Notes: generated by a model from the sequence alone, not told the origin. A stretch of 64,000 bases of DNA from an uncultured bacterium (GCA_964573295.1 CAZNJE010000021.1:3570-67569); one strand, 5' to 3'; counted from the first letter of the stretch, positions 3-22,499 are shown. A program made the numbers and translations.

Positions 3-2156
3 GTGACACAGGCCGATACGCTGCTGGTACGGCTTTTCGGCAACGAGGGACACGTCGACATCGCCGGTGCCGGCTACCGGGACACGAGCGGGGATGGTCG
101 CATCGAACGCCGCCTCGTCCCCCTGGGCATTCTGGAGAACGAGACCCATCCCCCCCTCCTGCTGATTGCCTGGAACGCGGGCGCCGACGCGGGTCGCCGC
201 GGCATCCAGGCCATCGATCTGGACCGTTTGGAACCGGCCTGGTTCTATCCCACCGGTCCGAATCCCTACCAGTGGTCGTTCCGATTCGAGGACCTCGACC
301 ACGATGGCGAGCACGAGATTCTCTTCTGTCTACCCACGTCGATGCAGGGCCGCAGTGCCGGATCCACCGATGATCGCCACTCCTGGGTCGTCGCGCTCGA
401 ACCGGATGGCCAGGAGCTGTGGGCCCACCGCCTGAGCGGTGCCTACGGATCGCCGGCCTGGGCGGAGGCCGTGACACCGGCACCCGAAACCAGCTACGTG
501 GCGGCGGTCGCGAAACGCTTTCATTCCGGGGACACAGATCAGATCCTTGCGGCCGACACCTTGTTCGTCGTCGCTGCCGACAAGGGTAGCCCGACTGCCT
601 ACCGGCCGCTCGACCGCCAGCCCTGTGGTCTGGCGCGCTTCTCGAACACTCATCTGCTGCTGACCCACTACGACGGCACCTTTGAAACGTATGCGGTCGG
701 AGCCGACGGACAGCTTGCACGTACCGCTGCCGACTCCTTCGTGGTGGGCGCCGAACGGCTCAGTGCCTCTGATCTCGACGGCGACGGCCGGTGTGAGATC
801 GCCGCCCTGGGGCGCGGCCCCGATGGCGTGGAACTGCTCCTGGTCGATCAAGAGCTTCGCCTGCGGGGACGCAAGCAGCTCGAGACGATGAGCTACGGCG
901 GCGCGCGACTCTCGTTCCTGCAAGCGCGCCACGAGACGCCGCCGCTGCTGCTGGTGGGGGCCGGCCCCTATACGATCACCTTCGCCCCGCGAGTCGTCCG
1001 CGGGCAGACCTACCGGCTCGCCAGTGCGTTCCTGGCACTGCCGGGCATCTGGTGGCCAGGGGGCGCCTTGCTGGCGGGTGCTGGGATGGCGGCGCTTTCG
1101 GCCGCGCGGCGTCTGCGCGTCAAATGGCGGCAGCTGCTGGAGACGTGGTCACGGCGGCAGCAAACGAGTCCGACGCCCGTCCGCACCCGCGTGCTGCGGG
1201 TCGAGTTCGAGCGTCACATGCACAAGATGCACCATGGGTCCTCCTGTGCGATCACCATCCTCAAGATGGCCTGGGGCAATCTGGAGAACGCGGCGGAGGA
1301 TGAACGCCCTCAGGCCCTCTATCGCAGCCACCTCCTGGCAAACTGGGAACAGCTCGACTGGGTGGGTTGGATGCAGATTGACGAAGCGCTTTCGTTGGCC
1401 CGAGCGCTCGGGGTCGCTCCCGACCGGTGCGCGCGCATCGAAGAGAGCGCCGAGGTGATCGCCCGCGAATGGCCCGCGCTGCTCGAACGAACCTGGGATG
1501 CCGGCACCGTAGCGGCCGCCCGCAAGGTGCTCAGCCCGGCCCTCGAGACCCTGGCCGCCGATCTCGAGTCGTTCCGCCTCTGGACCCAGCACGACTTGCA
1601 CCAGCGCGCAACGCACGAGCTGCGCGCGACGCTGCGCGCGCTCGAGCAGAACGTGGCTACCGGTGACCAGCCCTTGGTCGTCGAGATTGCCCCCGAAGCC
1701 GACCGGCTGTGGATCCGGGCCGTGCCGGGCGACGTGCACTTCATGGTTGAGAACCTGGTGGCCAACGCCTACCGTGCGCTCGAGAACGGGCCCGGGCGCG
1801 TCACCGTGCGGGCCTTTCCGCTGAACGCCTTCCTGGTCGTCGAGGTGGAAGATGACGGTTGCGGTATTGCGCCCGAGGCTCACGAACAGATCTTCGCGCA
1901 CAAACGCCCCCGCGGCGACGGCCACGGTACGGGACTGGTCGCCTCCCGCCGTATGGTCCGGGATCTGCACGGCAACCTCGAGCTCCTCGGCAGCGAGGTG
2001 GGCGAGGGTACCACGTTCGCGCTGTTCCTGCCCCTGGTGTCGGCGCCGCCCGACCCGTTCGAGCCGTCCGCGGAGGAGACCCGCACGGATCGTGTGAACG
2101 GCTCCATGGGACACCCAGGACGGTACCACTCCGGTGAGGTGGAGGAGATGCCATGA
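3..2156 (+). CDS. Sensor histidine kinase, 5'-partial. N-terminal FG-GAP/VCBS-like repeats, C-terminal HisKA plus HATPase_c.
   Basis: C-terminal region carries an H-box (THELRATLRAL) and an HATPase_c G-box region (VEVEDDGCGIA...GDGHGTGLVASRRMV...GEGTTFALFLPL). Upstream DxDxDG-type motifs (DLDHDGEHEILF, DLDGDGRCEIAAL) suggest an FG-GAP/beta-propeller sensor domain. The ORF runs off the 5' edge of the window. Its stop overlaps the next gene's start (ATGA), consistent with an operon. Confidence 0.8.
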   Translation: MTQADTLLVRLFGNEGHVDIAGAGYRDTSGDGRIERRLVPLGILENETHPPLLLIAWNAGADAGRRGIQAIDLDRLEPAWFYPTGPNPYQWSFRFEDLDHDGEHEILFCLPTSMQGRSAGSTDDRHSWVVALEPDGQELWAHRLSGAYGSPAWAEAVTPAPETSYVAAVAKRFHSGDTDQILAADTLFVVAADKGSPTAYRPLDRQPCGLARFSNTHLLLTHYDGTFETYAVGADGQLARTAADSFVVGAERLSASDLDGDGRCEIAALGRGPDGVELLLVDQELRLRGRKQLETMSYGGARLSFLQARHETPPLLLVGAGPYTITFAPRVVRGQTYRLASAFLALPGIWWPGGALLAGAGMAALSAARRLRVKWRQLLETWSRRQQTSPTPVRTRVLRVEFERHMHKMHHGSSCAITILKMAWGNLENAAEDERPQALYRSHLLANWEQLDWVGWMQIDEALSLARALGVAPDRCARIEESAEVIAREWPALLERTWDAGTVAAARKVLSPALETLAADLESFRLWTQHDLHQRATHELRATLRALEQNVATGDQPLVVEIAPEADRLWIRAVPGDVHFMVENLVANAYRALENGPGRVTVRAFPLNAFLVVEVEDDGCGIAPEAHEQIFAHKRPRGDGHGTGLVASRRMVRDLHGNLELLGSEVGEGTTFALFLPLVSAPPDPFEPSAEETRTDRVNGSMGHPGRYHSGEVEEMP

Positions 2157-3586
2157 GAACCCTCAGACCCGCCGGTGGGGATTCGGCGTCTCCGACCCGC
2201 GAGCCCAAACCGCGACTGCTGATCGTCGACGACGATGAGCAGTTCTGCCAGATGATGCGCCTCGAGGTGGATGCCGATCATCATCTCGACGAGGCCCACT
2301 CGGCTGCGGAGGGCTGGCAGAGAGTCCTGCAGATCAATCCCGATGTCGTTCTCCTCGACGTCGGGATGGAGACCAAGGACGCCGGCCTCGGCTTGCTCCG
2401 GAAGATTCGGACACTGCCCACGCCACCGGCGGTGGTCATGATCACCGAGCACGACGACGTGAGCACGATCGTCAGCTCCATGCAGGGCGGCGCGGTCGAG
2501 TACGTGACCAAGCCGCCTCGCCGGAAGACGCTGCGCCAGGCCATCGAACGCGGGATCGAGAACCGACGCCTGCGGATGGAACTGGCGCTGCAGTCCGAGC
2601 GGCTTCCCGCCCTGGCGCGGCAAGCCATCATCGCCCGCGCTCCCCGCATGCAAGAGGTTCTGAAACGTGTCGAGAAGGCCGCGCGAACCGATGTCCCGGT
2701 CATCCTCACCGGAGAGACCGGGACGGGTAAGGACCTGATGGCGTATCAGATCCACGCGCGAAGCCGCCGCAAGGCCGGCGAGTTCGTTCCCTTCAGCTGC
2801 AATCGCCAGAACGAGAGCCTGGCCCTCAGTGAGCTGTTCGGCTACGAACAAGGTTCATTCACGGGGGCCGTCCAGCGACGGCAGGGCGCCCTCGAGAAGG
2901 CAAACGCCGGTACGCTGTTTCTGAACGAACTAGGCGAGTGCCCTCCCCGGCTACAGGAGATGCTCCTGAGCGCCAACCCGGACAGTCCGCACGGTTACGA
3001 ACGCGTCGGGGGCACGCGATTCGAGTCCGACTTTCGCCTGGTCGCGGCCACCAGCCGCAATGTCACGCGCATGCGGCAACAAGGCCTGCTGCGGGATGAT
3101 CTGTACAACCGCGTGGCTGGGTTCTGGATTCATATCCCGCCCTTGCGCAATCGTCCGGATGACATCCTCCCCCTCGCCCGGTCCTTTCTGGAGACCGCGT
3201 GTATGAAGGCCGATCTGGACCCGAAGACGTTCGCTCCAGCCACCGCCGAGGCGCTGTTGCAGCACGAGTGGCCGGGCAATGTGCGCGAACTCGGCAATGT
3301 CGTCGAGGCGGCGGTGACCGAGTGCGTCACGGGCACCACGATCGAACCCTGGCATCTGACCGGACTCTACCCGCCGGCTGGCGAACCGGTGCTGCCGTAC
3401 GAGGAGATGAAACAGCGAACCGTCCGATCGCTCCAGCGCCGGTATCTTCACGAACTCCTCGCCGAAGCCCGCGGGAACGTGCAAGAGGCCGGCCGCATCA
3501 GCGGGGTCGCCATCGGAACGCTGTACCGCTGGGCCAAGGAGTACGGGATCGACCCGGACGCCTACCGAGACGGAACCGGGGTGTGA
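2153..3586 (+). CDS. Sigma-54-dependent response regulator (NtrC/Fis family): REC + AAA+ sigma-54 activation + C-terminal HTH
   Basis: Receiver domain (LLIVDDDEQF...VLLDVGM). Walker A (ILTGETGTGKDLMA). The sigma-54 interaction region is degenerate, with ELFGYEQGSFTGA where the GAFTGA motif should be. C-terminal Fis-type HTH (GNVQEAGRISGVAIGTLYRWAKEYGI). Translationally coupled to the upstream kinase. Confidence 0.85.
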   Translation: MRTLRPAGGDSASPTREPKPRLLIVDDDEQFCQMMRLEVDADHHLDEAHSAAEGWQRVLQINPDVVLLDVGMETKDAGLGLLRKIRTLPTPPAVVMITEHDDVSTIVSSMQGGAVEYVTKPPRRKTLRQAIERGIENRRLRMELALQSERLPALARQAIIARAPRMQEVLKRVEKAARTDVPVILTGETGTGKDLMAYQIHARSRRKAGEFVPFSCNRQNESLALSELFGYEQGSFTGAVQRRQGALEKANAGTLFLNELGECPPRLQEMLLSANPDSPHGYERVGGTRFESDFRLVAATSRNVTRMRQQGLLRDDLYNRVAGFWIHIPPLRNRPDDILPLARSFLETACMKADLDPKTFAPATAEALLQHEWPGNVRELGNVVEAAVTECVTGTTIEPWHLTGLYPPAGEPVLPYEEMKQRTVRSLQRRYLHELLAEARGNVQEAGRISGVAIGTLYRWAKEYGIDPDAYRDGTGV

Positions 3587-3626
3587 GGGGAGTGAGGGGA
3601 GTGAGGGGATCACAGTCGATCGAACG

Positions 3627-3648
3627 GCACGCGATTGCACGGTAGCCT
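3627..3648 (+). promoter_or_regulatory. Candidate sigma-54 (-24/-12)-like element (cGGCACgcgaTTGCAc); spacing is one nt shorter than consensus
   Basis: GGCAC...TTGCA resembles TGGCAC-N5-TTGCW, but the GG-to-GC spacer is 9 rather than 10 nt. It lies 40 nt after the stop of the sigma-54-dependent regulator and about 450 nt upstream of the FeS gene. Weak call. Confidence 0.2.
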
Positions 3649-3949
3649 GCGTTCACCCAGCACCATCAGCTGATTCGGGTGCCGGGGTGACGCACGTCCC
3701 CCCCTAGGCTGCTAAAGAGCAGAAACCGTGCCGGTGGCATATTTCGGGGCTCCATTTGATCGAAGTCTGTAAGCTGCATTCGGAGAAACAATTGCTGGGA
3801 CTGCTATTCCGGTCCCGTCCTTCCGCGGCGGCCCAGGATTCTCCTGAATGTGAGGACTGGGCGGGCCTTCTTTGTAATTGTCTGTTCTGAATGGCGTTAC
3901 GGTCGAACACGTATGTGAGACCGGAACCGTTGCCGACGCCATGTCGCCC

Positions 3950-4075
3950 TCCGGCGACCGGCAACCGGCTGTCCGCAACGGGCGCCCGGCAACCGGCGCC
4001 CGGCAACCGGCGTCCGGCATGCGGCGTCCGGCATGCGGCGTCCGGCGTCCGGCTCGCGGAGCCGGCCGGTCAGAA
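3950..4075. repeat. GC-rich tandem repeat array (ccggcaaccggcgyccgg / ccggcatgcggcgtccgg units) in the 5' leader of the FeS gene
   Basis: Direct repeats visible: ccggcaaccggcgcccggcaaccggcgtccggcatgcggcgtccggcatgcggcgtccggcgtccgg. Confidence 0.7.
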
Positions 4076-4099
4076 AGTCGTAGATAGAAGGAGGATTTC

Positions 4100-5176
4100 A
4101 TGGCTGCCGAGGAGAGAGCCATGTCCACATCCCGGCGGGCATTCCTGAGAACCCTGGGGCTGGCGGGCGCCGCGGGCGCCGTCGCCTCGATGCCCGAAGC
4201 GAAGGCGTCTTCGTCCGAGAATGAGCTCGTCACCGTACTCGACATCGGTACGTGCATCGGGTGCGGTGCCTGCGTCGAGGCCTGCCACGAGGCTAACGCG
4301 GGCAAGTATCCCGACCCGCGGAAGCCCTACCCCAAGATGTACCCGAGCCGGGTCAAGGTGGCCGAGTGGTCGGACAAACGCGACATCATCGACCGGCTGA
4401 CACCCTACAACTGGCTCTTCCTCCAGCATGCCGAGGTAGAGTATCAGGACAAGACCTACGAACTCTCAATCCCGCGACGCTGCCTGCACTGCACCAACCC
4501 GCCCTGCGCCAATCTCTGCCCCTGGGGTGCCGCGCGCAAGCAACGCAATGGCATCGTCCGCATCGACGAGGAGATCTGCCTCGGCGGCGCCAAGTGCGCG
4601 GACGTGTGCCCCTGGGACATCCCCAAACGACAGACCGGGGTGGGCCTCTACCTCGACCTGCTGCCCTCCTTCGCCGGCAACGGCGTCATGTACAAGTGCG
4701 ACCGCTGTTACGATCGCGTCGAGCGCGGCGTCGTCCCCGCCTGCATCGAGGCCTGCCCGGTAGGCGCGCAGCGTATTGGCCCGCGCCGCGAGATGGTCGC
4801 CTACGCACACGAACTCTGCGCGCAGACGAACGGCTTCCTCTATGGCGAGATTGAGAACGGCGGCACGAATACCCTCTACGTCTCTCCGGTCCCGTTCGAC
4901 CTGATCAACGAGGCGATCGAGAAGGGACCCGGCAAGCCGCACATGGCCCCGGTCGAAAACCAAATGGGAACAGCGGAAAATCTCTCGTGGGTATTGCTGG
5001 TGGCCCCGCTGGCCGGCGCCGCCGCCGGGCTACTGAAGACCGGCACGCGCCTGCTGAAGGCCTCGGAGAGCCCAGGCGGCGAGCAGGCGGGCACGACCGC
5101 CGAGCAGGAGACAGGCACGACCGCCGAGCAGGAAACAGGCACGACCGCCGAGCAGGAGGCCCGCGATGATCGCTAG
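4100..5176 (+). CDS. Tat-exported 4Fe-4S ferredoxin-type subunit (FdnH/HybA/DmsB-like) with a C-terminal TM anchor and a TAEQETGT repeat tail
   Basis: RBS AGGAGG 7 nt upstream. Twin-arginine signal (SRRAFLRTLGLAGAAGAVAS). Four Cys clusters of CxxCxxCxxxCP type (CIGCGACVEAC, CLHCTNPPCANLCP, CLGGAKCADVCP, CDRCYDRVERGVVPACIEACP). Hydrophobic C-terminal helix (WVLLVAPLAGAAAGLL), then a 3x in-frame 24-nt repeat (GTTAEQET). Confidence 0.75.
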   Translation: MAAEERAMSTSRRAFLRTLGLAGAAGAVASMPEAKASSSENELVTVLDIGTCIGCGACVEACHEANAGKYPDPRKPYPKMYPSRVKVAEWSDKRDIIDRLTPYNWLFLQHAEVEYQDKTYELSIPRRCLHCTNPPCANLCPWGAARKQRNGIVRIDEEICLGGAKCADVCPWDIPKRQTGVGLYLDLLPSFAGNGVMYKCDRCYDRVERGVVPACIEACPVGAQRIGPRREMVAYAHELCAQTNGFLYGEIENGGTNTLYVSPVPFDLINEAIEKGPGKPHMAPVENQMGTAENLSWVLLVAPLAGAAAGLLKTGTRLLKASESPGGEQAGTTAEQETGTTAEQETGTTAEQEARDDR

Positions 5177-5624
5177 ACTCTTCCCCCGCTGGCTGACTGT
5201 TGCGATGGGCCTCGTGGTCGGCGCGCTGGCGCTCAGCGGGTTCGGCCAGATGCCGATCTTCAAGCGCTACTACGTGGCCGACATCCCGGGAATGGCATGG
5301 TTGGCCGCCTACTATGTTACGCATACGATCCACTATGTCGGGGCAATCATCTTTCTCGGGCTGCTGGCCTACATGGTCGTCGTCTACTTGCGCAGCCGTA
5401 CAGTGGGCGTCAGGATCACGCAATCGGGGGCCCTGCGCGCCGGCGCGGTGACTATTATCGCGGTCACCGGAATCCTCCGCGTGCTCAAGAGCCGGCCCGA
5501 CGTCTACCTGGGAGCGAACATCGTGTTCGCGATCGATCTGGCACACCTGGGCGGCGTCATGCTGTGGGGACTCCTGGCGTTGGCCGCGGCGATCGCCCGA
5601 CGCCGGCCCTATGTCCGTGTGTAG
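5166..5624 (+). CDS. Small polytopic membrane protein, possible b-type cytochrome membrane anchor (FdnI-like)
   Basis: Overlaps the FeS gene by 11 nt (coupled). About 4 predicted TM helices with conserved His in helices (THTIHY, LAHLGG). The cytochrome b assignment is inferred from context only. Confidence 0.45.
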   Translation: MIARLFPRWLTVAMGLVVGALALSGFGQMPIFKRYYVADIPGMAWLAAYYVTHTIHYVGAIIFLGLLAYMVVVYLRSRTVGVRITQSGALRAGAVTIIAVTGILRVLKSRPDVYLGANIVFAIDLAHLGGVMLWGLLALAAAIARRRPYVRV

Positions 5625-5701: not shown

Positions 5702-6463
5702 ATGCACATCCACATCCGTGCCAGATCACTGGCGCGTGGGCGGGCCATGTGTGTCGTCGCAGCGATCGTGCTGCTGACCGCAGCCGCCGCGCTGGCGCCT
5801 ATTGCCGCGGCGACGCCCACTGCCGCGCTGACGCCCACTGCCGCGGCGCAGACCGAAGAGGAGGTCTCGAGCTCGACCATCGAAACCCTACCCGGCCCCG
5901 AGCGTGTCGGCGGGGAGGGCCTCTTCGGCCTCCTCCAATCGCGCCGCTCGCTTCGTAGCTTCACCGACGAACGCCTCACGCCCGGCGAGATCGGGCAGCT
6001 GCTGTGGGCCGGGCACGGCACGACCGGCACCGACCGGTTCACCCATCATACGATCCCTTCGGCGGGAGCCCTCTACCCGATCGAGCTGTTTCTCCTCGAC
6101 AGCCGCGGGGTAGCTCGCTACCACCAGGCCGACCATGCTTTGGTCTGGCAAACGCGGGACGATCAGCGCAGCAACCTGGCTCGCGCCTGCCTCCAGCAGA
6201 TGTGGGCCGCCGATGCCCCCGCCATCATCGTCGTGGCGGGTGTACCCGAGCGGACCACCACCAAGTACGGGGACCGGGGAGAACACTACGTGCGGATCGA
6301 AGCCGGTTGCGTGCTACAGAACCTGTTGCTGACCGCGACCGAGCTGGAACTGGGAGGCACTCCGATCGGGGCCTTTCGGGACGAGGAAGTTTCCGGTTTG
6401 TTGCAGCTACCTCCGGGCTGGGAGCCGCTGCTGGTCGTGCCGGTGGGTCACGCCGCGCCCTAG
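5702..6463 (+). CDS. SagB-type dehydrogenase / nitroreductase-family flavoprotein with N-terminal signal/TM segment
   Basis: RRSLRSF motif, PSAGALYPIE motif (hallmark of SagB/ThcOx-type dehydrogenase domains) and a C-terminal ExG...PIGAF nitroreductase fold signature. Hydrophobic N-terminus (CVVAAIVLLTAAAALAPIAAA). Confidence 0.7.
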   Translation: MHIHIRARSLARGRAMCVVAAIVLLTAAAALAPIAAATPTAALTPTAAAQTEEEVSSSTIETLPGPERVGGEGLFGLLQSRRSLRSFTDERLTPGEIGQLLWAGHGTTGTDRFTHHTIPSAGALYPIELFLLDSRGVARYHQADHALVWQTRDDQRSNLARACLQQMWAADAPAIIVVAGVPERTTTKYGDRGEHYVRIEAGCVLQNLLLTATELELGGTPIGAFRDEEVSGLLQLPPGWEPLLVVPVGHAAP

Positions 6464-6632
6464 CGTGAACCGGGACCACCCCCGCCGCCAGGTCGCTCGA
6501 GCCGCGGCCTGGTGGTCGAGTCGCCGGTGGTCGAATCGTCACCGGGTGACTGGCCTCTGGCGGTCGAAGACAGGCTGGAGTAGAGTGGCGGGCAGAGGAT
6601 CGATTCACCCTCAACGCAAGGGAGGCACCACG

Positions 6633-6980
6633 ATGTTCTACAAACAGTTCACGGACGTGCCCTCCAAGCCAGTGGCCATGGAAGGAGCCGCTGACGTCAC
6701 CATCCGTGAGGTCTTCACCGAACGAGACGGCACCCCCACCTTCCAGCTGCGCATCTTCGATGTGGCGCCCGGTGGCCACACCCCCCTGCACCAGCACGAC
6801 TACGAGCACGAGATCTTCGTGCTGGCCGGCCAGGGAGAGGTCACGCTCGGCGAGCAGGTCCATGACATCGAACCGGGGAGCACCGCACTCGTCCAACCCA
6901 ATCTTCTCCACCAGTTCCGCAACCCTGGCGAGGCGCCCTTGCTCTTCATCTGTCTGATTCCAAATCGTGAGTCGCATTGA
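6633..6980 (+). CDS. Cupin-domain protein (115 aa)
   Basis: Internal ATG at 6633 with RBS AAGGGAGG upstream. Cupin motifs G(X)5HxH(X)3,4E(X)6G (GGHTPLHQHDYEHEIFVLAGQG) and PxGxxHxxxN-like (PGSTALVQPNLLHQFRNPG). The 168-nt upstream part of the ORF-track entry looks non-coding. Confidence 0.7.
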   Translation: MFYKQFTDVPSKPVAMEGAADVTIREVFTERDGTPTFQLRIFDVAPGGHTPLHQHDYEHEIFVLAGQGEVTLGEQVHDIEPGSTALVQPNLLHQFRNPGEAPLLFICLIPNRESH

Positions 6981-7885
6981 TGGTCGAAGGTCGCGATCAC
7001 CAAGCCGGTCCCCCGCCTTCGCCTTCGTCGTGGCCACCACCTCCCTCCCCCGCCACACGGCCGGGGCTGGGCGAAGCCGTGTTGCTGCTGCTCTTGATGG
7101 GCATCACAACCATGATCGCGGTCACGGCCCTCTTCCTGGGCGACGAGCAACGGGATCTCGACATGCTGCTCATGGGCATTCTCGAGGTCTTGGCCATCAC
7201 TCTCGTGCTGCTGGTTGGTGTGCGCCGCGTCGGGTTGCCGACCACACGGGTTCTGGGATTGCGGGCCGTCCCGCTCTGGCTGTGCCTTATCGCGGTACCG
7301 CTGGCAATGGCCGTGGGCACCGTCAACTCGGCCCTGGAGGCACCGGTACGCAACGTGATGCCGATCCCCGAGGAACTCCTGCTCGAGCTGGTCACCCTGC
7401 TCTATCCCGAGACGACGCTCGACTGGGTGCTGATCCTCCTCCCGACGGCCTTGCTGGTGCCGGTAGGGGAAGAGCTGCTCTTCCGCGGGCTGCTCTTGCG
7501 CGGCTTCCTGCTGCGATACGGAGCCACGCCAGCGCTGGCGCTGACCTCGCTGCTATTCGCGCTCGTTCACCTGAATCCTTGGGCTTTCGCCGGCTACTTC
7601 ATCGTCGGGTGGGTGCTGGGGTGGCTCGTGCTGCGGTCCGGCAGCGTGTGGCCAGCGATCATCCTGCACGCATCTTACAATGCTCTGGCGGTCATCCAGA
7701 CCAAGACGCTCATCGATGGGCCGCCCACACTCGAATCGATCCGTGCCGCATCCGAGAGCTGGTGGGACGCACCGGTGACCATCGTCATCTCAGCGCTTGC
7801 GTTGGTCCTCATGGTTCTGCTAATCGAGTCTCGAAGCCGCCAGGATCACCCCTGGGTCATCGACGAGATCTCCTTCGGCCGATAG
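6977..7885 (+). CDS. CPBP family intramembrane glutamic metalloprotease (CAAX protease / Abi family)
   Basis: Motifs EELLFRG, FALVH and HASYN in successive TM helices. 4-nt overlap with the cupin gene. Confidence 0.75.
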   Translation: MMVEGRDHQAGPPPSPSSWPPPPSPATRPGLGEAVLLLLLMGITTMIAVTALFLGDEQRDLDMLLMGILEVLAITLVLLVGVRRVGLPTTRVLGLRAVPLWLCLIAVPLAMAVGTVNSALEAPVRNVMPIPEELLLELVTLLYPETTLDWVLILLPTALLVPVGEELLFRGLLLRGFLLRYGATPALALTSLLFALVHLNPWAFAGYFIVGWVLGWLVLRSGSVWPAIILHASYNALAVIQTKTLIDGPPTLESIRAASESWWDAPVTIVISALALVLMVLLIESRSRQDHPWVIDEISFGR

Positions 7886-8030
7886 GCGCCGGGCCGAAGG
7901 ACGCCGGGCCGACGGGCGCCGGGTCGAGGGGTGTCCGGCCGAAGGGCGCCGGGCCGACGGGCGCTTGCCGACGGCCGTCCGGCCGATCAAGCCGGGTCAA
8001 CAAGGGAGCTCATTTCTTAGGAGGTGTCTC

Positions 8031-8432
8031 ATGGAATCATCCCCCAGTGCGCAATACAACGATAGCTCTCCGGTACTCTCCCTCACCGTCGAGGAGTTCA
8101 AGGACCTGGTCGCCCGCGTCGTGCGAGACGACGAAGAGATCGACGTCGAACTCGCCGGGCGTTTCGACGGTGGCGAACTCATCGTTCGGCCCAACCGCCC
8201 GGACCTCCAGGAGAAGGTCATCCCCATCGATAGCTTCTTTCACAAGATCGTGATGCTCCGCGATCGGTTGCGGGTTCTGGAGCAGAAGATCAACAGCAAC
8301 AGCAAGCTCAGCGACAGTGACAAGGTGGAACTGCAGCAGTTCATCACTCGCATCTACGGGTCGCTCACGACATTCAACATCCTCTTCCAGTACCGGGACG
8401 ATCAGTTCCGGGGGCAGAGCGGGCGGGGGTAG
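8031..8432 (+). CDS. Hypothetical protein (133 aa), predicted coiled-coil
   Basis: ATG at 8031 with AGGAGG RBS. No recognisable family. Moderate codon bias for this genome. Confidence 0.4.
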   Translation: MESSPSAQYNDSSPVLSLTVEEFKDLVARVVRDDEEIDVELAGRFDGGELIVRPNRPDLQEKVIPIDSFFHKIVMLRDRLRVLEQKINSNSKLSDSDKVELQQFITRIYGSLTTFNILFQYRDDQFRGQSGRG

Positions 8433-8503
8433 CCGATTCCCGGCGACCTTCACATTCCGCTAGACAGAATCTCCTGGGAGCCCAAAAATGGGGCCCGGAG
8501 TAA

Positions 8504-8598
8504 CCGGGATGATGACCGGGATGATGACCGGGGCGATGACCGGGATGATGACCGGGGCGATGACCGGGGCGATGACCGGGGCGATGACCGGGATGATG
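8504..8598. repeat. 12-nt tandem repeat array (ccggg[g]atgatga / ccggggcgatga), about 8 copies, intergenic
   Basis: Direct inspection: ccgggatgatga ccgggatgatga ccggggcgatga ccgggatgatga ccggggcgatga x3 ccgggatgatg. Confidence 0.85.
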
Positions 8599-8633: not shown

Positions 8634-9152
8634 ATGAGAGGCTCCCAGGGGGTGGTGATCTGTCTGTTGGCCGCAGCCATGCTGCTCATTGCTGGCTCGG
8701 CTGAAGCACAAAGCAAGTCGCGGTTCGGCGTGGGCTATGCGGTCACGCACTATGACCCCACCTTCGACATCACATTCCACATGCCCAAGTTCGTGTTTCA
8801 GTCCGACGTGTTTACCGCCGGGGGCGGATTCCAGCTGCACTCGGGGGAGGATCTCACGAACTTCATCCTGGAATTCGATTTCGCGGCCAAGGCGATCAAG
8901 CACCGGTCGGGGAGCATCAACTTCGGCGGCCAGATGCACCTCATGACCGACGGCATCGTCAGCCAGAATGCCCAGGGCAAGATCGAGAAGGACGCCATCT
9001 TCGGCTTCGGAGGCTTCGCGGAAGGCATGGTCGAGGTGGCCCCGAATATGAGCGTGAGCGCGCGAATCTACCCATTCCAGATCGCGAGCGGAGGCGACGC
9101 CACCCGCTTCGCCCTGCTGAGCGCCGGCGCCACGATCTCCTACCTCTTCTAG
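8634..9152 (+). CDS. Small outer-membrane beta-barrel protein (OmpW/OmpX-like, 8-strand type)
   Basis: RBS GGAGG. Sec signal peptide (LLAAAMLLIAGSAEA-QS). Alternating amphipathic beta-strand pattern. C-terminal aromatic residue (…ISYLF) typical of OMP C-termini. Confidence 0.55.
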   Translation: MRGSQGVVICLLAAAMLLIAGSAEAQSKSRFGVGYAVTHYDPTFDITFHMPKFVFQSDVFTAGGGFQLHSGEDLTNFILEFDFAAKAIKHRSGSINFGGQMHLMTDGIVSQNAQGKIEKDAIFGFGGFAEGMVEVAPNMSVSARIYPFQIASGGDATRFALLSAGATISYLF

Positions 9153-9380
9153 GTCACCCTCTCCTGGGAGGGTCGCGGGGAGACCGGACGCCGGTCTCCC
9201 CCGCCATCGCAGCTTCTTGTGCGCACGCCGCCGTTGCCAGATCCACCGCTGCGTGGCGGCAAGGGTTGCCTTTCGAACTGACTCTCCCCCAACCACTTGG
9301 ACGTTTCGACTACCGAGAGGGCTCGCGGCGGGCGCGCTACCCAGAGGCTCTCGGCGAGCGCTGGAGGGGAAGGCCGAATT

Positions 9381-9428
9381 CTCGACCGAACCCTCGACCG
9401 AACCCTCGACCGGACCCTCAACCGGATC
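9381..9428. repeat. 12-nt tandem repeat (ctcgaccgaacc), about 3.5 copies, intergenic
   Basis: ctcgaccgaaccctcgaccgaaccctcgaccggaccctcaaccgg. Confidence 0.8.
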
Positions 9429-9545: not shown

Positions 9546-12275
9546 ATGTCAGACTGGAAAGCCCACTTGGAGGAGCTGCTGAATCCGGAAAACGCCTCGG
9601 CGTCCAGTCCGGACGCCGAGGCGCGCACAGCCGCCCAAGATATCCTCGATGAGGCCTCCGCTTCTAACGAAACGGAGGCCTTACTGCAAGAGCTCGATAC
9701 GAGGTATCCGCTCCGCAGCCAGCAGGGACATCTACAGCCCCTGCCGGCCTACCTGCGAAGTCACCTCATGATGCGGCTCGATCGCAGCGAGGAAGCATTG
9801 CTCACGTTGCTGCCGCTGTGCGAGAAGATCGAGCAGGAGGGGAAGTGGGCCGTGCTGAACGCGCTGGCCTCCGAGGCGCTGGCGTTGCAACCCCACATCG
9901 AACTAGCCCGCTACCTGGCCAAGGCGGCCGAGGAAGGCGGCGTTGGTGAGGTACCCGAGGAAACCCTCGAGCATGCGCTGGACCTGTTCCCCGACGAGCA
10001 TCGCCTCTGCTGGCTGGTGGCCGAGAAGCTCGAGGATGCGGGCGAGACCGAGAAGGCCCTGGGTCTCTTCACTGGCTGTCTCCCAGCCCTGATCGACGCC
10101 CGTGAGCGCGAGAAGGTCGAGGAGGTCTTCCTCCGTCTGGAAGATTGTGAGGACAGCGAGACCCTCCAGACGATGATGCACGCCTGCATGCGGCTCTTCG
10201 GGGTCAAGGAATACAAACTCGGCGACTCCTACCTGGAACCGCTACTTCCAAAGATCAAGTCCGTCGGTTTGGCCGGCGAGGCCTGGCGCATGCTGACCAA
10301 ACTGCTCCCGAAAGCGGCCCCGGAGAACAACCTGCGCAAGCACCTGCTCGCGGTCGCGCCCGATGCTTTCCCCGGCGTGGACGGCGTGGCCGATCTGCTC
10401 ACCCGTAGCGGCTTGCTTGATCCGTCGGTCAAAGTCGACCAGGCGCTCAAGAAGCTCAATCAGCTCTTGGAGTTCGCGCCCGGCTACTACGTGCTGCACA
10501 GCAGCTTTGGCCCCGGCCACATCCAGGTGCGCGAGGACGACGCCCTGATCATAGACTTTCCCGACAAGCCTGGGCATCGCATGTCGATGAAGATCGCGCG
10601 CAATGCTCTGCAGGTCATCCCGGCCGACGACTTGCGCGTCCTGTGGGCCAACGAACCGGAGAAGGTCAAGGCCATGGCGCGGTCGGACAAGACCGGTTTG
10701 GCCTATCTGGCCATCCGCGAGCTCGGGGGCAAGACCACCACCCAAGAGCTGCGCCGGCGCCTGACCCCCGACATCATCAGCACCTCGAGCTGGAGCACGT
10801 GGTGGAAGGACGCCCGCACGCTGATGGAGGAGGACGACCGCTTCGACTTCAGCGAGAGCTTCAAGCAAACCTACGGCATCCGCCTCCCGGGCGCCGACGA
10901 TCACGAATTCGAGCTGCCGCGGCTGGACCGGCGACGCGGCATCCGCGCCAACCTGAACCTGCTCCGCCGCTTTCTGGATCAACACCCGCAGCACACCGAG
11001 ACGGCCGTGCGCATGTACACGCCGGTCCTGATCCGTTGGATGCGCGAGGAGCGCACACATCCCGAGGCGGCTGTGGCTGTCTGCCTCACGCTGGATCGCT
11101 GGAAGCGTCTAGATGTCGCGGACCTCGACCGCAGCCTGAAGCGCCTCCTGGAATCCGGGGCGGAAGCCAGCTCCTTCGCCGACGAAGACAGTCAGCGCCT
11201 GCTGGCCACCCGCGCGATGGAACTCGAGGGCTATGAGCGCGACGCCATCTACTTCGCGATGGGATCGCGATACGGTTCCATCCGTGAGGTTGCACTGACC
11301 AAGCTTCGCGCGCAGCCCGAGGAAGGCAACCGGCTGCTGACCGAGCTGCTCGCCCGGCCCGAGGAGCGGCCGAATACGGCGCAGTCGATCATCCAGAACG
11401 TCATGGCCGACGAGTCCGAGCGCGAGCCATTCTTCCCATCGGTCTGGCGGGGGGCGCTCTCGCTCGCCCGTCTCGTCGAGCGCACCGGACGCGATTCGTT
11501 CCGCGAGCAGATCATGCGTCTGTTCAAGCCGAACAGCCAGCTCGCCGATGCGCTTCGCGATGCGCCGGTTCCCGACGACATCCCGTTCTTGCTCGAGGAT
11601 GCGCTGAAGCGCTGGCGCCAATCGGAGAACTACCTCTTCCCCATCCTCGATTTCTTCGAAAGTGCGGGGCTCGAAGAAACGGTGAGTGCCGTTCGTGACA
11701 GCCGCTCGCTGGCCACCAATCGCTTGCTCATGCAACAGCAGCATGAGGGACATGCGTTCGATGGCTATTACCTGACACGCGCCACCTACCACCGGCTGGA
11801 GGAAGAACGCAACCAGCTCGCCTTCGAGCTGAAGACCAGCGTGGCGCAGGCCATTCAGAAGGCACGCGAACACGGCGACCTCAGCGAGAACGCCGAGTAC
11901 GATGCGGCCAAGGAGAAGCAGGCAAACTACCACGCGCGGATCCATCAGATCGACGCCCAGCTGAGCCGCGCCAACCTCATCGAAACGGTCGATGTGCCCG
12001 ACGGGGTCGTCGGTCCCGGATCGTTGGTCGACCTGAAGGTCGTCTCGAGCGCCGGCCCCAACGGCATCAAGAGCCTACGCTATTGGCTCCTGGGCGAGGG
12101 CGACTCCGGCGACAGCGAAGAGGTGATCTCCTGCACGGCCCCAGCCGCAAAGAAGCTGCTGGGCCACCGTGTGGGCGATACGATCGAACTCGAGAGCGAT
12201 CAGGGGCCGTATCAGGTTGAGATCGTGGCCACTGAGAAACGCTTGCCGGAAGAGCACTCGGCGGGGAAGGCGTAG
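9546..12275 (+). CDS. Large (909 aa) protein with a C-terminal GreA/GreB transcript-cleavage-factor domain fused to a roughly 700-aa helical N-terminal region
   Basis: C-terminus has the canonical GreA N-terminal coiled-coil motif (AREHGDLSENAEYDAAKEKQANYHARIHQIDAQL) followed by the FKBP-like GreA C-domain (VVGPGSLVDLK...ISCTAPAAKKLLGHRVGDTIELES). The N-terminal 700 aa has no family I can name. A segment (YYVLHSSFGPGHIQVRED) faintly resembles CarD/TRCF RNAP-interaction motifs. Confidence 0.7.
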   Translation: MSDWKAHLEELLNPENASASSPDAEARTAAQDILDEASASNETEALLQELDTRYPLRSQQGHLQPLPAYLRSHLMMRLDRSEEALLTLLPLCEKIEQEGKWAVLNALASEALALQPHIELARYLAKAAEEGGVGEVPEETLEHALDLFPDEHRLCWLVAEKLEDAGETEKALGLFTGCLPALIDAREREKVEEVFLRLEDCEDSETLQTMMHACMRLFGVKEYKLGDSYLEPLLPKIKSVGLAGEAWRMLTKLLPKAAPENNLRKHLLAVAPDAFPGVDGVADLLTRSGLLDPSVKVDQALKKLNQLLEFAPGYYVLHSSFGPGHIQVREDDALIIDFPDKPGHRMSMKIARNALQVIPADDLRVLWANEPEKVKAMARSDKTGLAYLAIRELGGKTTTQELRRRLTPDIISTSSWSTWWKDARTLMEEDDRFDFSESFKQTYGIRLPGADDHEFELPRLDRRRGIRANLNLLRRFLDQHPQHTETAVRMYTPVLIRWMREERTHPEAAVAVCLTLDRWKRLDVADLDRSLKRLLESGAEASSFADEDSQRLLATRAMELEGYERDAIYFAMGSRYGSIREVALTKLRAQPEEGNRLLTELLARPEERPNTAQSIIQNVMADESEREPFFPSVWRGALSLARLVERTGRDSFREQIMRLFKPNSQLADALRDAPVPDDIPFLLEDALKRWRQSENYLFPILDFFESAGLEETVSAVRDSRSLATNRLLMQQQHEGHAFDGYYLTRATYHRLEEERNQLAFELKTSVAQAIQKAREHGDLSENAEYDAAKEKQANYHARIHQIDAQLSRANLIETVDVPDGVVGPGSLVDLKVVSSAGPNGIKSLRYWLLGEGDSGDSEEVISCTAPAAKKLLGHRVGDTIELESDQGPYQVEIVATEKRLPEEHSAGKA

Positions 12276-12397
12276 GACGCCCACGTAAACGCCCGCGCCC
12301 ACGCCCGCGTAAGCGCCTGCGCCTGCGCCTGCGCCCGCGCCCGCGTGAGCGCCGGCGTCCGCGCAGGCGTCCGTGCCGGTGAATCTGCAAGAAGGGA

Positions 12398-13126: not shown

Positions 13127-13256
13127 GGGCGTCCCCCGCAGCCGGACGGGACGGCTGAGCGCCCATACCTCAACTTGCTGATCTCAACTGGTCAACTGCT
13201 CGATCTCAACAGGTTGATCTCAACTTCTCGATCGCGCCTGGTTGACCTCAGTTGGT

Positions 13257-13630: not shown

Positions 13631-14809
13631 ATGACGAACCCAATGCCACAACCTCAACAAAGTCGCGCTTTCGGACGTGTGCTCGTTCTCGGGGCAACCG
13701 GTATGATCGGAGCCCACATCGTGCGCGCCTGTCTCGAGCGCGGCTGGGCTACGCGCGCCCTCGTCCGCGCCACGAGCGACCGGCGCAACTTGGATGCTCT
13801 TCCGGTCCAGATTGCCGAGGGGGATCTGCGCGATCCCGCCTCGATCGCTCGCGCCCTGGAGAACTGCGATCTCTTGCTGCACGCTGCGGCCCCGTATCCG
13901 CGAAGGCATTTCGGCAAAGCCGCGCTGATCGCCTCGGCCCGCGAATCGATGCAGAACCTGCTCGCCACCTGGGCGGCTCATTGCCGCGTTCTGGGACGCG
14001 GGCGAATGGTCTACGTGAGTAGCGTGACGACCCTGAATCCGGTGCGCGACAGTGCGCCCTACTTCGAGCTCAAGCAGATGCTGGAAACGCTGGCGATGGA
14101 AGCCGCAGATCCAGGTAGGACCGGTGCAAGGGGCGGCACCGAGGTGGGCACCAAGGCCCGTGCCAAAGCCAGCTCCGAGGCCGGCTCGGAGGCCCGCTCC
14201 GAGGCCCGCTCCGAGGCCCGCTCCGAGCCCCGCTCCGAGGCCCGCTCCGAGCCCCGCTCCGAGGCCCGCTCGGAGGCCCGTGCCAAGGCCGGCTCCGAGG
14301 CCGGCAAAGACATCGTGGTCGTCAACCCCACATTCTGCATCGACGAGTTCGATACGAATCTGACGACCGCTCAACTCCTCCTGCCCCTCGCGCGGCGTCA
14401 GTTGCCGGCCTACCTGCCCGGCCGGCTCAACGCGGTGGCCACGCGCGACGTGGGCGTAGGCGTGGCGCTCGCCGCCGAGCACGGACATTCGGGATCACGC
14501 TATGTCTTGGGGGGCGAGAACCTCACCAGCGGTGCGCTCCTCGAGCGCTGCGCACGCGTGGCCGGGGTACCCGCACCCCGGCGAACGATGCCGATCCCGC
14601 TGGCCGAGGCTCTGAGCATGGTGACCGAGGTGGTTGCCTATGCAACGGGAACGCGGCCGCTCTTTCCCATGACCGGCATCCGCATGATCAAGCACGGGCA
14701 GGCGGTCGACATCCGCACCACACGCGAAGAGCTCGGCTACGAGCCGAGCTCCCTTGATGAGGCCATCGGCCGGGCCTACGACTGGTACCGGCGCGAGGGG
14801 TGCTTGTAG
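13631..14809 (+). CDS. NAD(P)-dependent epimerase/dehydratase (extended SDR) with an in-frame (SEAR)n low-complexity insertion
   Basis: Rossmann motif (LVLGATGMIGAHIVRA). SDR-e fold throughout. Residues about 175-225 are an approximately 50-aa insert (AKASSEAGSEARSEARSEARSEPRSEARSEPRSEARSEARAKAGSEAG) encoded by a 12-nt tandem repeat array at 14155-14305. Confidence 0.75.
   Translation: MTNPMPQPQQSRAFGRVLVLGATGMIGAHIVRACLERGWATRALVRATSDRRNLDALPVQIAEGDLRDPASIARALENCDLLLHAAAPYPRRHFGKAALIASARESMQNLLATWAAHCRVLGRGRMVYVSSVTTLNPVRDSAPYFELKQMLETLAMEAADPGRTGARGGTEVGTKARAKASSEAGSEARSEARSEARSEPRSEARSEPRSEARSEARAKAGSEAGKDIVVVNPTFCIDEFDTNLTTAQLLLPLARRQLPAYLPGRLNAVATRDVGVGVALAAEHGHSGSRYVLGGENLTSGALLERCARVAGVPAPRRTMPIPLAEALSMVTEVVAYATGTRPLFPMTGIRMIKHGQAVDIRTTREELGYEPSSLDEAIGRAYDWYRREGCL
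14155..14305. repeat. 12-nt tandem repeat (ggcccgctccga, about 10 copies) inside the epimerase CDS, in frame
   Basis: ggcccgctccgaggcccgctccgaggcccgctccgagccccgctccgaggcccgctccgagccccgctccgaggcccgctcggag. Confidence 0.85.
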
Positions 14810-18616: not shown

Positions 18617-19113
18617 GACACACTCCCTGGCGGTGCGGGCCTGAAGATCCAGACGAGACCGCCGATGTTGGTCGTCCATGTCCTATGCTGTCCGTCAGCT
18701 ACCAGCCCGGCGCGATCGCGCTGACGTAGTCGCCCTCATGCGGTCGTCCTCATGTGGTCGCCCTGACGTAATCGCGCCAGCTTGGACTCATCAATTATAG
18801 CACAGATCCACGGTGCGCCGGGCTCCCGAAAAGTCTAGTTCATTAGTGGATGGGCGTGTCGGGAATGTATACGCCTGAGGAGGACGGCACGATGTCACAT
18901 GGAGATTCGATCTCGCATCTTGCTAGATTACAAAAGGATACGGAACCATCGCCCAAGATGTTTCATTGTCGCAACACGATCAGGACGCAGCCCCGGCAAG
19001 CTTCGGCAAACACCGCGAGGATAGGTCAGCGCAGGTCTGCTGTGCCTCGACGGGTGACACAGGAAGAGCTCGTCTTCAATCCCCTCTTCACCCCCCCGTC
19101 TTCAACCCCGTCT

Positions 19114-22374: not shown

Positions 22375-22499
22375 CTAGCTAGCGAGCTAGCGAGCGTGCG
22401 TGCGTGCCTGCGTGCCTGCGTGCGTGTGAGAGCGCAAGAGAGAGAGAGAGCAGCACGACAGGAATGCGCGGCAGGACTGCGTGACGAAGGGATGCGTGG

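Follow-up and report, generated by a model that had tools for sequence, protein, structure and literature searches.

Among the closest known counterparts of the protein considered here, which we call NTR, are the TOMM azoline dehydrogenases McbC, SagB and BcerB, which have in common with it the FMN nitroreductase fold and a passing score against the model TIGR03605. In McbC-type azoline dehydrogenases, a Lys-Tyr pair abstracts the C-alpha proton. The catalytic residues of McbC itself are K201 and Y202 (PMC6395948). The hallmark of TOMM clusters is YcaO, and CaaX-like proteases have been found in the cytolysin and propionisin TOMM clusters (PMC4603692). The TOMM B proteins are cytoplasmic, whereas NTR is predicted to be exported, has no YcaO, scaffold or precursor partner, and belongs to a family that is orphan in nearly all genomes.

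ThcOx/CyaGox and BmdC are FMN-dependent oxidases of thiazolines (a cyanobactin oxidase and an NRPS thiazoline oxidase) and they fall in the same SagB-like clade as NTR, with profile E values of about 1e-15 and Foldseek E values of 1e-12 to 1e-14. The ThcOx protein, with about 470 aa, has a pair of RRE-like domains at its N terminus, whereas in NTR a signal peptide and a linker are all that precede the catalytic domain; BmdC docks on an NRPS, whereas NTR has no biosynthetic neighbours. The closest solved relatives by profile are Ava_2154 (3eo7, 3e-50) and then 8cqs, 3hoi and 3hj9 (1e-28 to 1e-32), and these four structures match the fold of NTR with TM scores of 0.8-0.9. The four are stand-alone proteins about as large as the catalytic domain of NTR, and BF3017 (3hoi) and BT_0217 (8cqs) among them are small FMN nitroreductases of Bacteroides. 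Ava_2154 has tandem SagB-like domains, and 3hj9 (Reut_A1228) lacks a Lys-Tyr pair at the position aligned to the NTR dyad. These entries come from structural genomics or from surveys, and none has been assigned a physiological substrate. A literature search found no functional account of exported or stand-alone SagB-like enzymes, of BT_0217 or of BF3017; BT_0217 is one of nine putative nitroreductases that were deleted together (PMC13171619).

The window is the whole stretch of DNA that was analysed, 64,000 nucleotides in length, and the features of interest within it are listed in Table 1. A first-pass annotation had drawn attention to a trio of genes for a SagB-type dehydrogenase, a cupin and a CPBP protease. 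These three genes are present at the positions that it gave, all on the + strand. Our analysis suggests that the locus probably represents a lone extracytoplasmic FMN dehydrogenase embedded in lineage-specific synteny, on an ordinary stretch of a Candidatus Eisenbacteria-type chromosome.

Table 1. Genes of the NTR locus, in order along the window
Feature	Position	Strand	Predicted product	Characteristics
FeS	4100-5176	+	HybA/HmcB-like four-cluster FeS protein	Tat signal SRRAFLR; C-terminal TM helix; Fer4_11, Fer4_7
mem152	5166-5624	+	4-TM membrane protein, 152 aa	no Pfam family; overlaps FeS gene by 11 nt
NTR	5702-6463	+	SagB-clade nitroreductase-fold FMN protein, 253 aa	predicted exported
Cupin	6633-6980	+	metal-site cupin, 115 aa	no signal peptide; PF07883, 7e-18
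CPBP	6977-7885	+	CPBP/Rce1-like glutamic intramembrane protease, 302 aa	PF02517, 3e-23
p133	8031-8432	+	cytoplasmic protein	no Pfam model; always after cupin or CPBP in the lineage
OMP	8634-9152	+	small outer-membrane beta-barrel-like protein	signal peptide; C-terminal Phe; weak PF13505, E 0.008

The dehydrogenase and its predicted export signal

The two motifs that the first-pass annotation cited as typical of SagB/McbC-type azoline dehydrogenases are both present in NTR, with RRSLRSF at residues 81-87 and PSAGALYP at residues 119-126; the counterpart of the latter in McbC is PSGGALYP. A Pfam scan matches the protein to PF00881 with an E value of 7e-31. The TIGR03605 model, named 'SagB family peptide dehydrogenase', gives 88.4 bits, above its cut-off of 78.4, and covers residues 96-249. 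In a family-profile alignment, K188 and Y189 of NTR align with K201 and Y202 of McbC, such that the 'kY' in ...veRtavkYGeR... stands opposite ...fekalfKYryR... of McbC, whose sequence was checked against 6gos_C for this purpose. The passing TIGR03605 score upholds the earlier assignment of the protein as SagB-type rather than NfsA/NfsB-like. McbC is nevertheless distant from the NTR family profile (3e-10), and it has an N-terminal region of about 90 residues that is absent from NTR.

The AF2 model of NTR has a pLDDT above 90 across the domain and below 50 for residues 1-55. When this model was used for a fold search, the best matches were the FMN nitroreductases BF3017 (3hoi) and BT_0217 (8cqs), each with a TM score of 0.9, followed by BmdC, ThcOx and McbC.

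The predicted layout of NTR consists of a Sec-type signal or anchor (residues ~1-40), an Ala/Thr/Pro linker (~40-60) and the catalytic domain (~60-253). The hydrophobic N-terminal segment is MHIHIRARSLARGRAMCVVAAIVLLTAAAALAPIAAA, and the low-complexity linker that comes next is derived from an 18-nt repeat. There is no twin-arginine motif in the leader of the window's NTR. The first-pass annotation had described an N-terminal signal or TM segment as unusual for such a dehydrogenase. The segment is real, but it is not unusual, as a hydrophobic leader is found in 97 of the 120 nearest homolog clusters. A lipobox-like Cys occurs in 57 of these clusters and an RR motif in about 10. NTR is shown to have the FMN-binding nitroreductase fold and the McbC-type Lys-Tyr pair, together with a predicted export signal like that of its relatives.

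The wider family and the RiPP question

There are 1577 matches to NTR, and the best 120 of them are 41-100% identical to it and 196-302 aa in length. Database names for these relatives include 'SagB-type dehydrogenase family enzyme' and 'SagB/ThcOx family dehydrogenase'. The motifs of the FMN site are kept in all 120 homologs, with R81, S83, R85 and PSAG(A) invariant. Y189 is likewise invariant, and position 188 is K in 107 homologs and R in the other 13.

Representatives of the family are very numerous. At least 580 GTDB stretches from many phyla encode a relative of NTR, and the number of family clusters at 50% identity is 193 at E<=1e-30, 3272 at 1e-10 and 8805 at 1e-3. The members are single-domain proteins of about 230 aa and they range from Actinomycetota to methanogens, with CPR bacteria included. 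NTR is a new member of a large family that is already annotated in databases and whose genes normally stand alone.

The neighbours of 80 GTDB loci were inspected with phmmer and profile HMMs, and the cupin, CPBP and FeS neighbours are absent in 78 of them. A cupin match occurs once among these 78 other loci (L062), where it is 8 kb away and on the opposite strand. There is also one FeS match among the 78 non-Eisenbacteria loci, in a member of the Chloroflexia (L012, on the same contig as L006), where NTR is followed at a distance of about 2 kb by a Fer4/NrfD/cytochrome gene set. No homolog of mem152 is found in any of the 78. Co-occurrence of the NTR, cupin and CPBP genes, which the first-pass annotation had put forward as a check, is limited to the Eisenbacteria-type loci.

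Clustering of the neighbours in the 78 non-Eisenbacteria loci did not reveal any recurrent partner for NTR across the family. The commonest neighbours are an ABC ATPase (7 loci) and a radical-SAM gene (6 loci), and the latter is directly upstream of NTR and co-directional with it in only four loci, three from Acidobacteriota and one from Woeseiaceae. These counts reflect similarity to the window's own proteins together with all-against-all clustering, a procedure that very divergent partners could escape.

These observations bear on one of two readings in the first-pass annotation, namely that the trio is a degenerate or novel RiPP/TOMM-like module. According to this proposal, NTR would oxidise a heterocycle or a C-alpha/C-beta bond in a ribosomal peptide, CPBP would cleave the leader or confer immunity in the manner of SagE, and the genes for the cyclodehydratase and precursor would lie elsewhere or escape recognition. 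Such a role would suit the passing TIGR03605 score, the conserved dyad that aligns with the catalytic pair of McbC, and the occurrence of CaaX-like proteases in the cytolysin and propionisin clusters. However, Pfam scans of every substantial ORF in the 64-kb window gave no YcaO (PF02624), the hallmark enzyme, and no E1-like protein or other RiPP enzyme. A comparison of small ORFs of 18-110 aa across eight aligned blocks found no conserved precursor-type ORF, but only alternative-frame shadows of known genes, although a peptide that varies within the lineage could escape such a comparison. The initial remark that neither YcaO nor a precursor gene is found near NTR is thus borne out by both searches. 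A search of the full window with Rfam also gave no match, for example to an FMN riboswitch.

Further objections come from the protein and its surroundings. NTR is predicted to be exported, whereas TOMM B proteins act in cytoplasmic complexes, and its family is orphan in 78 of 80 loci across phyla, including those of CPR bacteria and methanogens. No ABC exporter adjoins the block, the CPBP gene is dispensable (see below), and the surrounding genes are of the housekeeping type (NadA, ThyX, aspartokinase and ASD). The RiPP reading is largely refuted by this context, and we consider it very improbable.

The Eisenbacteria-type gene block

There are ten distinct Eisenbacteria-type loci, and the lineage of the window was assigned to this type from named p133 homologs and shared synteny. 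NTR, cupin and p13x genes are present in all ten loci, CPBP in eight, and the FeS pair in three. The NTR and cupin genes are adjacent and co-directional in every case, even though identity among the NTR proteins is no higher than 51-58% and the flanks differ and are rearranged. This constancy could reflect a functional operon instead of inertia.

The cupin is a small metal-site protein, and it is a constant neighbour of NTR in Eisenbacteria-type loci only. Its start is most likely the ATG at 6633, inside an ORF spanning 6465-6980, as suggested by an alignment of orthologs. Residues H53, H55, E58, H59, E60 and H93 are invariant in eight orthologs.

The CPBP gene overlaps the stop of the cupin gene by 4 nt and is translationally coupled to it. 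The identification of its product as a CPBP/Abi intramembrane protease holds, with a match to PF02517 and EELLFRG, FALVH and HASYN all intact. These motifs are invariant across nine orthologs, as are E165, E166, R170, F194, H198, H231 and N235. There are only about 17 orthologous clusters in 5.8 billion proteins, beyond which the score falls sharply from 187 to 84 bits. The best NCBIfam matches are both below their cut-offs (ABC_perm_CPBP, 108 bits against 435; MrtJ, 47 against 75).

SagE-type CPBP/CaaX-like proteases also match PF02517 and have the three catalytic motifs intact. However, they belong to bacteriocin clusters, whereas the CPBP of the window has no such context and is part of a tiny ortholog group from a single lineage. 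Around it lie the cupin, p133 and OMP genes and one for a GreA-like protein, and no precursor gene or ABC exporter is located beside it in the block. In addition, the CPBP gene is missing from the sister loci L092 and L094.

There are more than 8000 homologs of p133, with 50-70% identity, and they are found in Bacteroidota, Nitrospirota and Myxococcota. In other phyla, these homologs carry an extra N-terminal PcrA/UvrD tudor domain or a CxxC domain. The AF2 model of p133 is mediocre (pLDDT 69), and a fold search with it gave no significant PDB match. The equivalent of the small outer-membrane protein is located between NTR and cupin in sister loci, and its orthologs are labelled OMP_b-brl in L004, L089, L091 and L092.

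One possibility is that the block is an envelope operon of the Eisenbacteria, whose genes (NTR, OMP, cupin, p13x and, in the loci that have it, CPBP) are transcribed together and serve a single envelope process. Perhaps an extracytoplasmic compound is processed or detoxified, with CPBP as an accessory protease. The order and strand NTR-(OMP)-cupin-(CPBP)-p13x are constant in the ten loci across at least three flanking contexts, and the 4-nt cupin/CPBP overlap recurs in the window, L001, L004, L089 and L091. A scan for sigma-70 promoters and terminators, itself of little informative value, shows no terminator-like site on the + strand between the genes, and each CPBP ortholog on a long-enough contig adjoins an NTR gene. 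These features agree with co-transcription, but the products are predicted to occupy four compartments: periplasm, outer membrane, cytoplasm and inner membrane. Moreover, p13x is a cross-phylum protein whose other members include some with an RNAP-type tudor domain, two of the loci lack CPBP as noted above, and the association is missing in 78 of 78 other NTR loci. Most of the block genes are also set apart from one another by 140-250 nt of intergenic DNA that is full of tandem repeats.

We therefore prefer to regard the block as a conserved gene order, and not as one pathway, because its products are distributed over four compartments, CPBP is optional and p133 resembles a cross-phylum housekeeping protein. 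A cooperating envelope operon is unlikely in our estimation.

The upstream FeS-mem152 pair

The two genes that precede NTR in the window resemble the HybA/HybB, FdnH/FdnI and DmsB/DmsC modules, in each of which a Tat-exported four-cluster FeS protein is combined with a small polytopic anchor. Unlike those modules, the FeS-mem152 pair has no co-conserved catalytic subunit, and its usual neighbours are ECF sigma and anti-sigma genes. The FeS protein scores 121 bits against HybA and 119 bits against HmcB, both far under the equivalog cut-offs. There are 364 relatives of mem152 in metagenomes, and GFGQMPIFKRYY, H53, H56 and H127 are invariant across 81 sequences. A sigma-54 activator is encoded next to the FeS gene, which prompted a search for a sigma-54 promoter in front of that gene; positions 3586-4100 contain none on the + strand, and across the window such matches are as numerous as chance predicts.

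The NTR gene begins only 78-100 nt after the pair in three loci (the window, L009 and L001). This short distance was counted against the view that NTR is a lone enzyme, as the three products would share the periplasm. Also counted against that view is the lack of another catalytic partner near the pair.

The second reading of the first-pass annotation, that NTR was recruited into an FeS/cytochrome module, would mean that the sub-lineage of the window has a redox chain in its periplasm. NTR would be the catalytic head of the Tat-exported FeS protein and mem152, and would exchange electrons with the quinone pool. The three genes follow one another in the same direction in the window, L009 and L001-L003, and the predicted export of NTR would place it on the same side as the FeS protein. 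The Tat signal and C-terminal TM helix of the FeS protein, and the three invariant His residues of mem152, are also consistent with this arrangement, and the genes next to the pair include none for a catalytic protein of the molybdo-, hydrogenase or haem type.

A survey of 80 mem152-centred metagenome loci argues otherwise. The FeS gene is directly upstream of mem152 in 72 of them and NTR is present in none; the genes that recur around mem152 code for thioredoxin, an ECF sigma factor and a ZAS-like anti-sigma factor. Conversely, the pair is missing from seven of the ten Eisenbacteria-type NTR loci, and apart from the Chloroflexia case there is no FeS match in the non-Eisenbacteria NTR loci. 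The window's NTR also lacks a twin-arginine motif. The proposed recruitment accordingly finds little favour in these comparisons and we judge it to be quite unlikely. We infer that FeS-mem152 is an independent two-gene redox unit that happens to be located beside the block in one sub-lineage.

Overall, the first-pass annotation is partly supported: the three genes are as described, and they do not form a hidden peptide-antibiotic cluster. The preferred reading, as stated at the outset, is a lone extracytoplasmic dehydrogenase. NTR would work by itself, either in the periplasm or on the outward-facing side of the cytoplasmic membrane, and may serve there as an FMN-dependent dehydrogenase or oxidase. 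Perhaps, after the C-alpha proton is abstracted, hydride is transferred to FMN, with a substrate other than a RiPP precursor. The flavin would be loaded after export, and the electrons might then be handed to an acceptor. The cupin, CPBP, p133 and small OMP genes that follow would represent a conserved Eisenbacteria gene order with no shared pathway.

A broader proposal is that exported SagB-clade proteins constitute an unrecognised class of extracytoplasmic FMN dehydrogenases that share a substrate in the envelope or outside the cell, and that one Eisenbacteria sub-lineage has wired its member to quinones via Tat-FeS/mem152. We offer this idea tentatively and think it improbable. An example of a reaction for such a class would be the C-alpha/C-beta dehydrogenation of a peptide or a lipid-linked molecule. 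Exported SagB-clade proteins are mostly routed by Sec or as lipoproteins, and therefore would acquire their flavin outside the cytoplasm.

For the window locus, these results remove a false RiPP lead, and they show that a match to the SagB model together with a CPBP neighbour is no evidence for a TOMM cluster. A similar caution applies to genome mining in general, as TIGR03605 and the label 'SagB/ThcOx family dehydrogenase' span a very large family of predicted exported, stand-alone proteins. The family also raises a biochemical question: how does a non-covalent flavoenzyme with an active site of the azoline-dehydrogenase type, exported mostly without Tat, come to be loaded with flavin, and what are its redox partner and substrate?

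Gene layout and active site of the nitroreductase-fold protein

There is a run of genes between window positions 3 and 13126, all on the forward strand. The first-pass annotation singled out three of them, encoding a SagB-type protein with a nitroreductase fold (NTR), a cupin and a CPBP protease, and this observation is borne out by Pfam and NCBIfam matches, with every quoted motif found in the translations.

Genes of the run and selected neighbours of NTR homologs at other loci (L numbers)
Feature	Location	Strand	Remarks
Sensor kinase	3-2156	+	
Sigma-54 response regulator	2153-3586	+	
Four-cluster FeS protein	4100-5176	+	Tat signal
152-aa protein (mem152)	5166-5624	+	four TM segments; overlaps FeS gene; without Pfam family
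NTR, nitroreductase-fold protein	5702-6463	+	PF00881 at 7e-31
Cupin	ORF 6465-6980, probable start ATG 6633	+	PF07883 at 7e-18
CPBP protease	6977-7885	+	PF02517 at 3e-23; 4-nt overlap with cupin stop
133-aa protein (p133)	8031-8432	+	
Small beta-barrel-like OMP	8634-9152	+	
909-aa GreA/GreB-domain protein	9546-12275	+	GreA/GreB N- and C-terminal domains form the last ~170 residues
HAD hydrolase	after 909-aa protein, run ends 13126	+	
GltD/SudA-like oxidoreductase	L004 4081-6342; L089 740-3010; L091 3127-5394; L093 1542-3785; L092 2640-5048		
Radical-SAM gene upstream of NTR homolog	L022 8671-9894; L029 8539-9801; L063 3-854; L070 8772-9884		three Acidobacteriota, one Woeseiaceae

Most intergenic gaps from 3.5 to 13.3 kb hold a short GC-rich tandem repeat with a period of 7-30 nt and 2-15 copies (3578-3609, 3950-4053, 7876-7986, 8503-8598, 9374-9424, 12277-12379 and 13170-13250), and in-frame coding repeats are located at 5080-5158, 5786-5845 and 14168-14302. 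The FeS protein has three in-frame copies of GTTAEQET at its C-terminus, the NTR linker is an in-frame repeat, and an epimerase-like ORF carries an internal array of eleven 12-nt units.

The SagB-type assignment holds for both the domain and the active site. NTR scores 88.4 bits against the SagB domain model TIGR03605 (cut-off 78.4), and far below threshold for the NfsA-type and other equivalog models of NCBIfam. Structures matched by its family profile are 3eo7 (3e-50), three small FMN nitroreductases, namely 8cqs (BT_0217), 3hoi (BF3017) and 3hj9 (1e-28 to 1e-32), ThcOx and BmdC (1e-15), and McbC (3e-10). The AlphaFold model (pLDDT >90 for residues ~60-253, <50 for the leader and linker) superposes best on 3hoi and 8cqs (TM 0.9), followed by BmdC, ThcOx, 3eo7 and McbC. 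When the McbC sequence, checked against 6gos_C, is aligned to the family profile, its K201-Y202 falls exactly on K188-Y189 of NTR. In McbC this dyad abstracts the C-alpha proton, after which hydride is transferred to FMN (PMC6395948). Among the 120 nearest homologs, Y189 is invariant, position 188 is occupied by K (107 homologs) or R (13), and R81, S83, R85 and P119-G122 are also invariant. The aligned dyad and these conserved motifs make a dehydrogenase-type mechanism plausible.

A large family with predicted export

There are 1577 matches in a protein search with NTR, the best 120 of which are 196-302 aa long and 41-100% identical; sources that name them use 'SagB-type dehydrogenase family enzyme' or 'SagB/ThcOx family dehydrogenase'. 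Their N-termini resemble signal peptides or lipoprotein signals. A hydrophobic leader precedes the RRSxR motif in 97 of these 120, and thus the N-terminal signal or TM segment, thought unusual at first, is the family norm; the leaderless homologs are mostly the shortest (196-205 aa). HMMER, run in full over 1.84 billion representatives at 50% identity, gives 193 clusters of relatives at E<=1e-30, 3272 at 1e-10 and 8805 at 1e-3. Among the top matches listed, most are 215-280 aa and have 25-100 residues ahead of the domain. A lipobox-like Cys is present in 57 of the 120 homologs and an RR motif in only about 10. The family appears to consist of non-covalent FMN enzymes exported mostly via Sec or lipoprotein signals, which implies that flavin would be loaded after export and that the redox partner would be extracytoplasmic.

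At least 580 stretches of GTDB genomes encode an NTR relative, the top 80 of them being spread over Actinomycetota, Chloroflexota, Planctomycetota, Acidobacteriota, Desulfobacterota, CPR bacteria and methanogens. These 80 loci were searched up to 10 kb on either side with phmmer, using the window's neighbours, and with profile HMMs for the cupin and CPBP. Cupin and CPBP neighbours are found only at L009, where NTR is 89% identical and synteny matches the window, and at L010, and are absent from the other 78; all-against-all clustering of neighbours at the GTDB loci yields no recurrent partner family. This pattern argues for a large, predicted exported orphan family and not for a cluster enzyme. 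Separately, at four loci a radical-SAM gene with CxxxCxxC and an AmmeMemoRadiSam-like look lies directly upstream of the NTR homolog and is co-directional with it.

Conserved gene order in Candidatus Eisenbacteria

We gathered ten distinct loci of the window's type (the window, L009, L001, L004, L010, L089, L091, L092, L093, which is about equivalent to L090, and L094), assigned to Candidatus Eisenbacteria from named homologs of the 133-aa protein. NTR, the cupin and the p133 equivalent (13x-aa protein) have identical order and strand in all ten. In most, a small OMP is encoded either between NTR and the cupin or 3' of the 13x-aa gene. CPBP is present in eight; in L092 and L094, the cupin is followed directly by the 13x-aa gene. 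Thus the three genes occur together at 8/10 Eisenbacteria-type loci, and at only two (L009 and L010) of the GTDB set of 80. CPBP orthologs form only about 17 clusters before the score falls from 187 to 84 bits. The catalytic motifs of CPBP and the metal site of the cupin are intact in sequence.

With >8000 members that share 50-70% identity and span several phyla, the 13x-aa family is no special feature of this block. The conserved core of the family lacks a Pfam model, and an AF2 model of p133 (pLDDT 69) has no fold match in the PDB. In other phyla, homologs have a PcrA/UvrD tudor or CxxC domain added at the N-terminus, which hints at a function connected with transcription.

Flanking genes vary among the ten loci (GreA-like/HAD, SHMT, CheR/CheA or a DUF7948 protein), and the block's products are predicted to reside in four different compartments. 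The trio is lineage-specific synteny with CPBP optional, and we take the block to be mainly conserved gene order; that it instead constitutes a lineage-specific operon is a live rival reading, which the invariant order and strand would fit, and which we judge fairly unlikely.

Two further neighbours recur at Eisenbacteria loci. An oxidoreductase of ~750-800 aa (DHODB_Fe-S_bind, Fer4_20 and Pyr_redox_2 domains) is usually divergent from NTR, with a response regulator between them; in L092 the two genes share a strand, and the oxidoreductase gene runs 4 nt into the start of NTR. The 909-aa protein, whose ~740-residue N-terminal part has no Pfam match and whose orthologs are labelled HTH_GRAD, is kept beside the block at several loci.

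The redox-module and RiPP readings

There are 364 relatives of mem152 in a metagenome scan. An FeS ortholog is directly upstream in 72 of the best 80 loci; in the other eight, mem152 begins no more than about 110 nt into the contig, placing the upstream gene out of view. NTR and CPBP occur at none of these 80, and a cupin at one (a weak match about 5 kb off on the opposite strand). Genes that recur nearby encode an ECF sigma factor, a ZAS-like anti-sigma factor and thioredoxin. Invariant in mem152 are GFGQMPIFKRYY, H53, H56 and H127; the FeS protein is HybA-like. The pair is a widespread, self-contained two-gene unit without a catalytic subunit, present at only three of the ten Eisenbacteria-type loci (window, L009, L001). 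That the pair adjoins NTR in one sub-lineage therefore does not count as evidence that the flavoenzyme was recruited into a redox module, as had been proposed. Such recruitment seems very improbable, and retains what probability it has because NTR, the FeS protein and mem152 would share the periplasm.

The hallmark of TOMM clusters is a cyclodehydratase, and the TOMM azoline dehydrogenases (B proteins, of the McbC and SagB type) have many non-TOMM homologs (PMC4603692). The initial remark that no YcaO is nearby extends to the whole 64-kb window, where a Pfam scan of every substantial ORF finds no YcaO, E1-like, TfuA, lanthipeptide or radical-SAM RiPP enzyme. The remaining genes are for housekeeping or transport (NadA, ThyX, aspartokinase, ASD, RND and MacB pumps, MATE, C25 and tricorn peptidases). 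Short ORFs common to eight aligned block copies are only alternative-frame shadows of known genes, and an Rfam scan gives no match. With NTR belonging to an orphan family and CPBP optional, the suggested RiPP-like module is not supported, and neither is recruitment.

Two other features of the window may be mentioned. The ThyX ORF (22485-24095, 536 aa) is roughly twice the usual length with two Thy1 (PF02511) stretches, and may encode a flavin-dependent thymidylate synthase that arose by internal duplication or fusion. A FlgD_ig domain forms the C-terminal end of two large proteins (15986-18679 and 62188-63936, both on the reverse strand), one of them a gingipain-like C25 peptidase. The same tail is seen on many secreted proteins encoded at related loci and may serve for sorting or surface attachment in this lineage.

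The locus is thus ordinary, and its NTR gene adds one more member to a family that has been annotated but not studied. It is this family, and not the locus, that holds the residual interest, as a predicted exported flavoenzyme with an azoline-dehydrogenase-type dyad, which raises the questions of what it acts on, how it is loaded with flavin and what its redox partner is.
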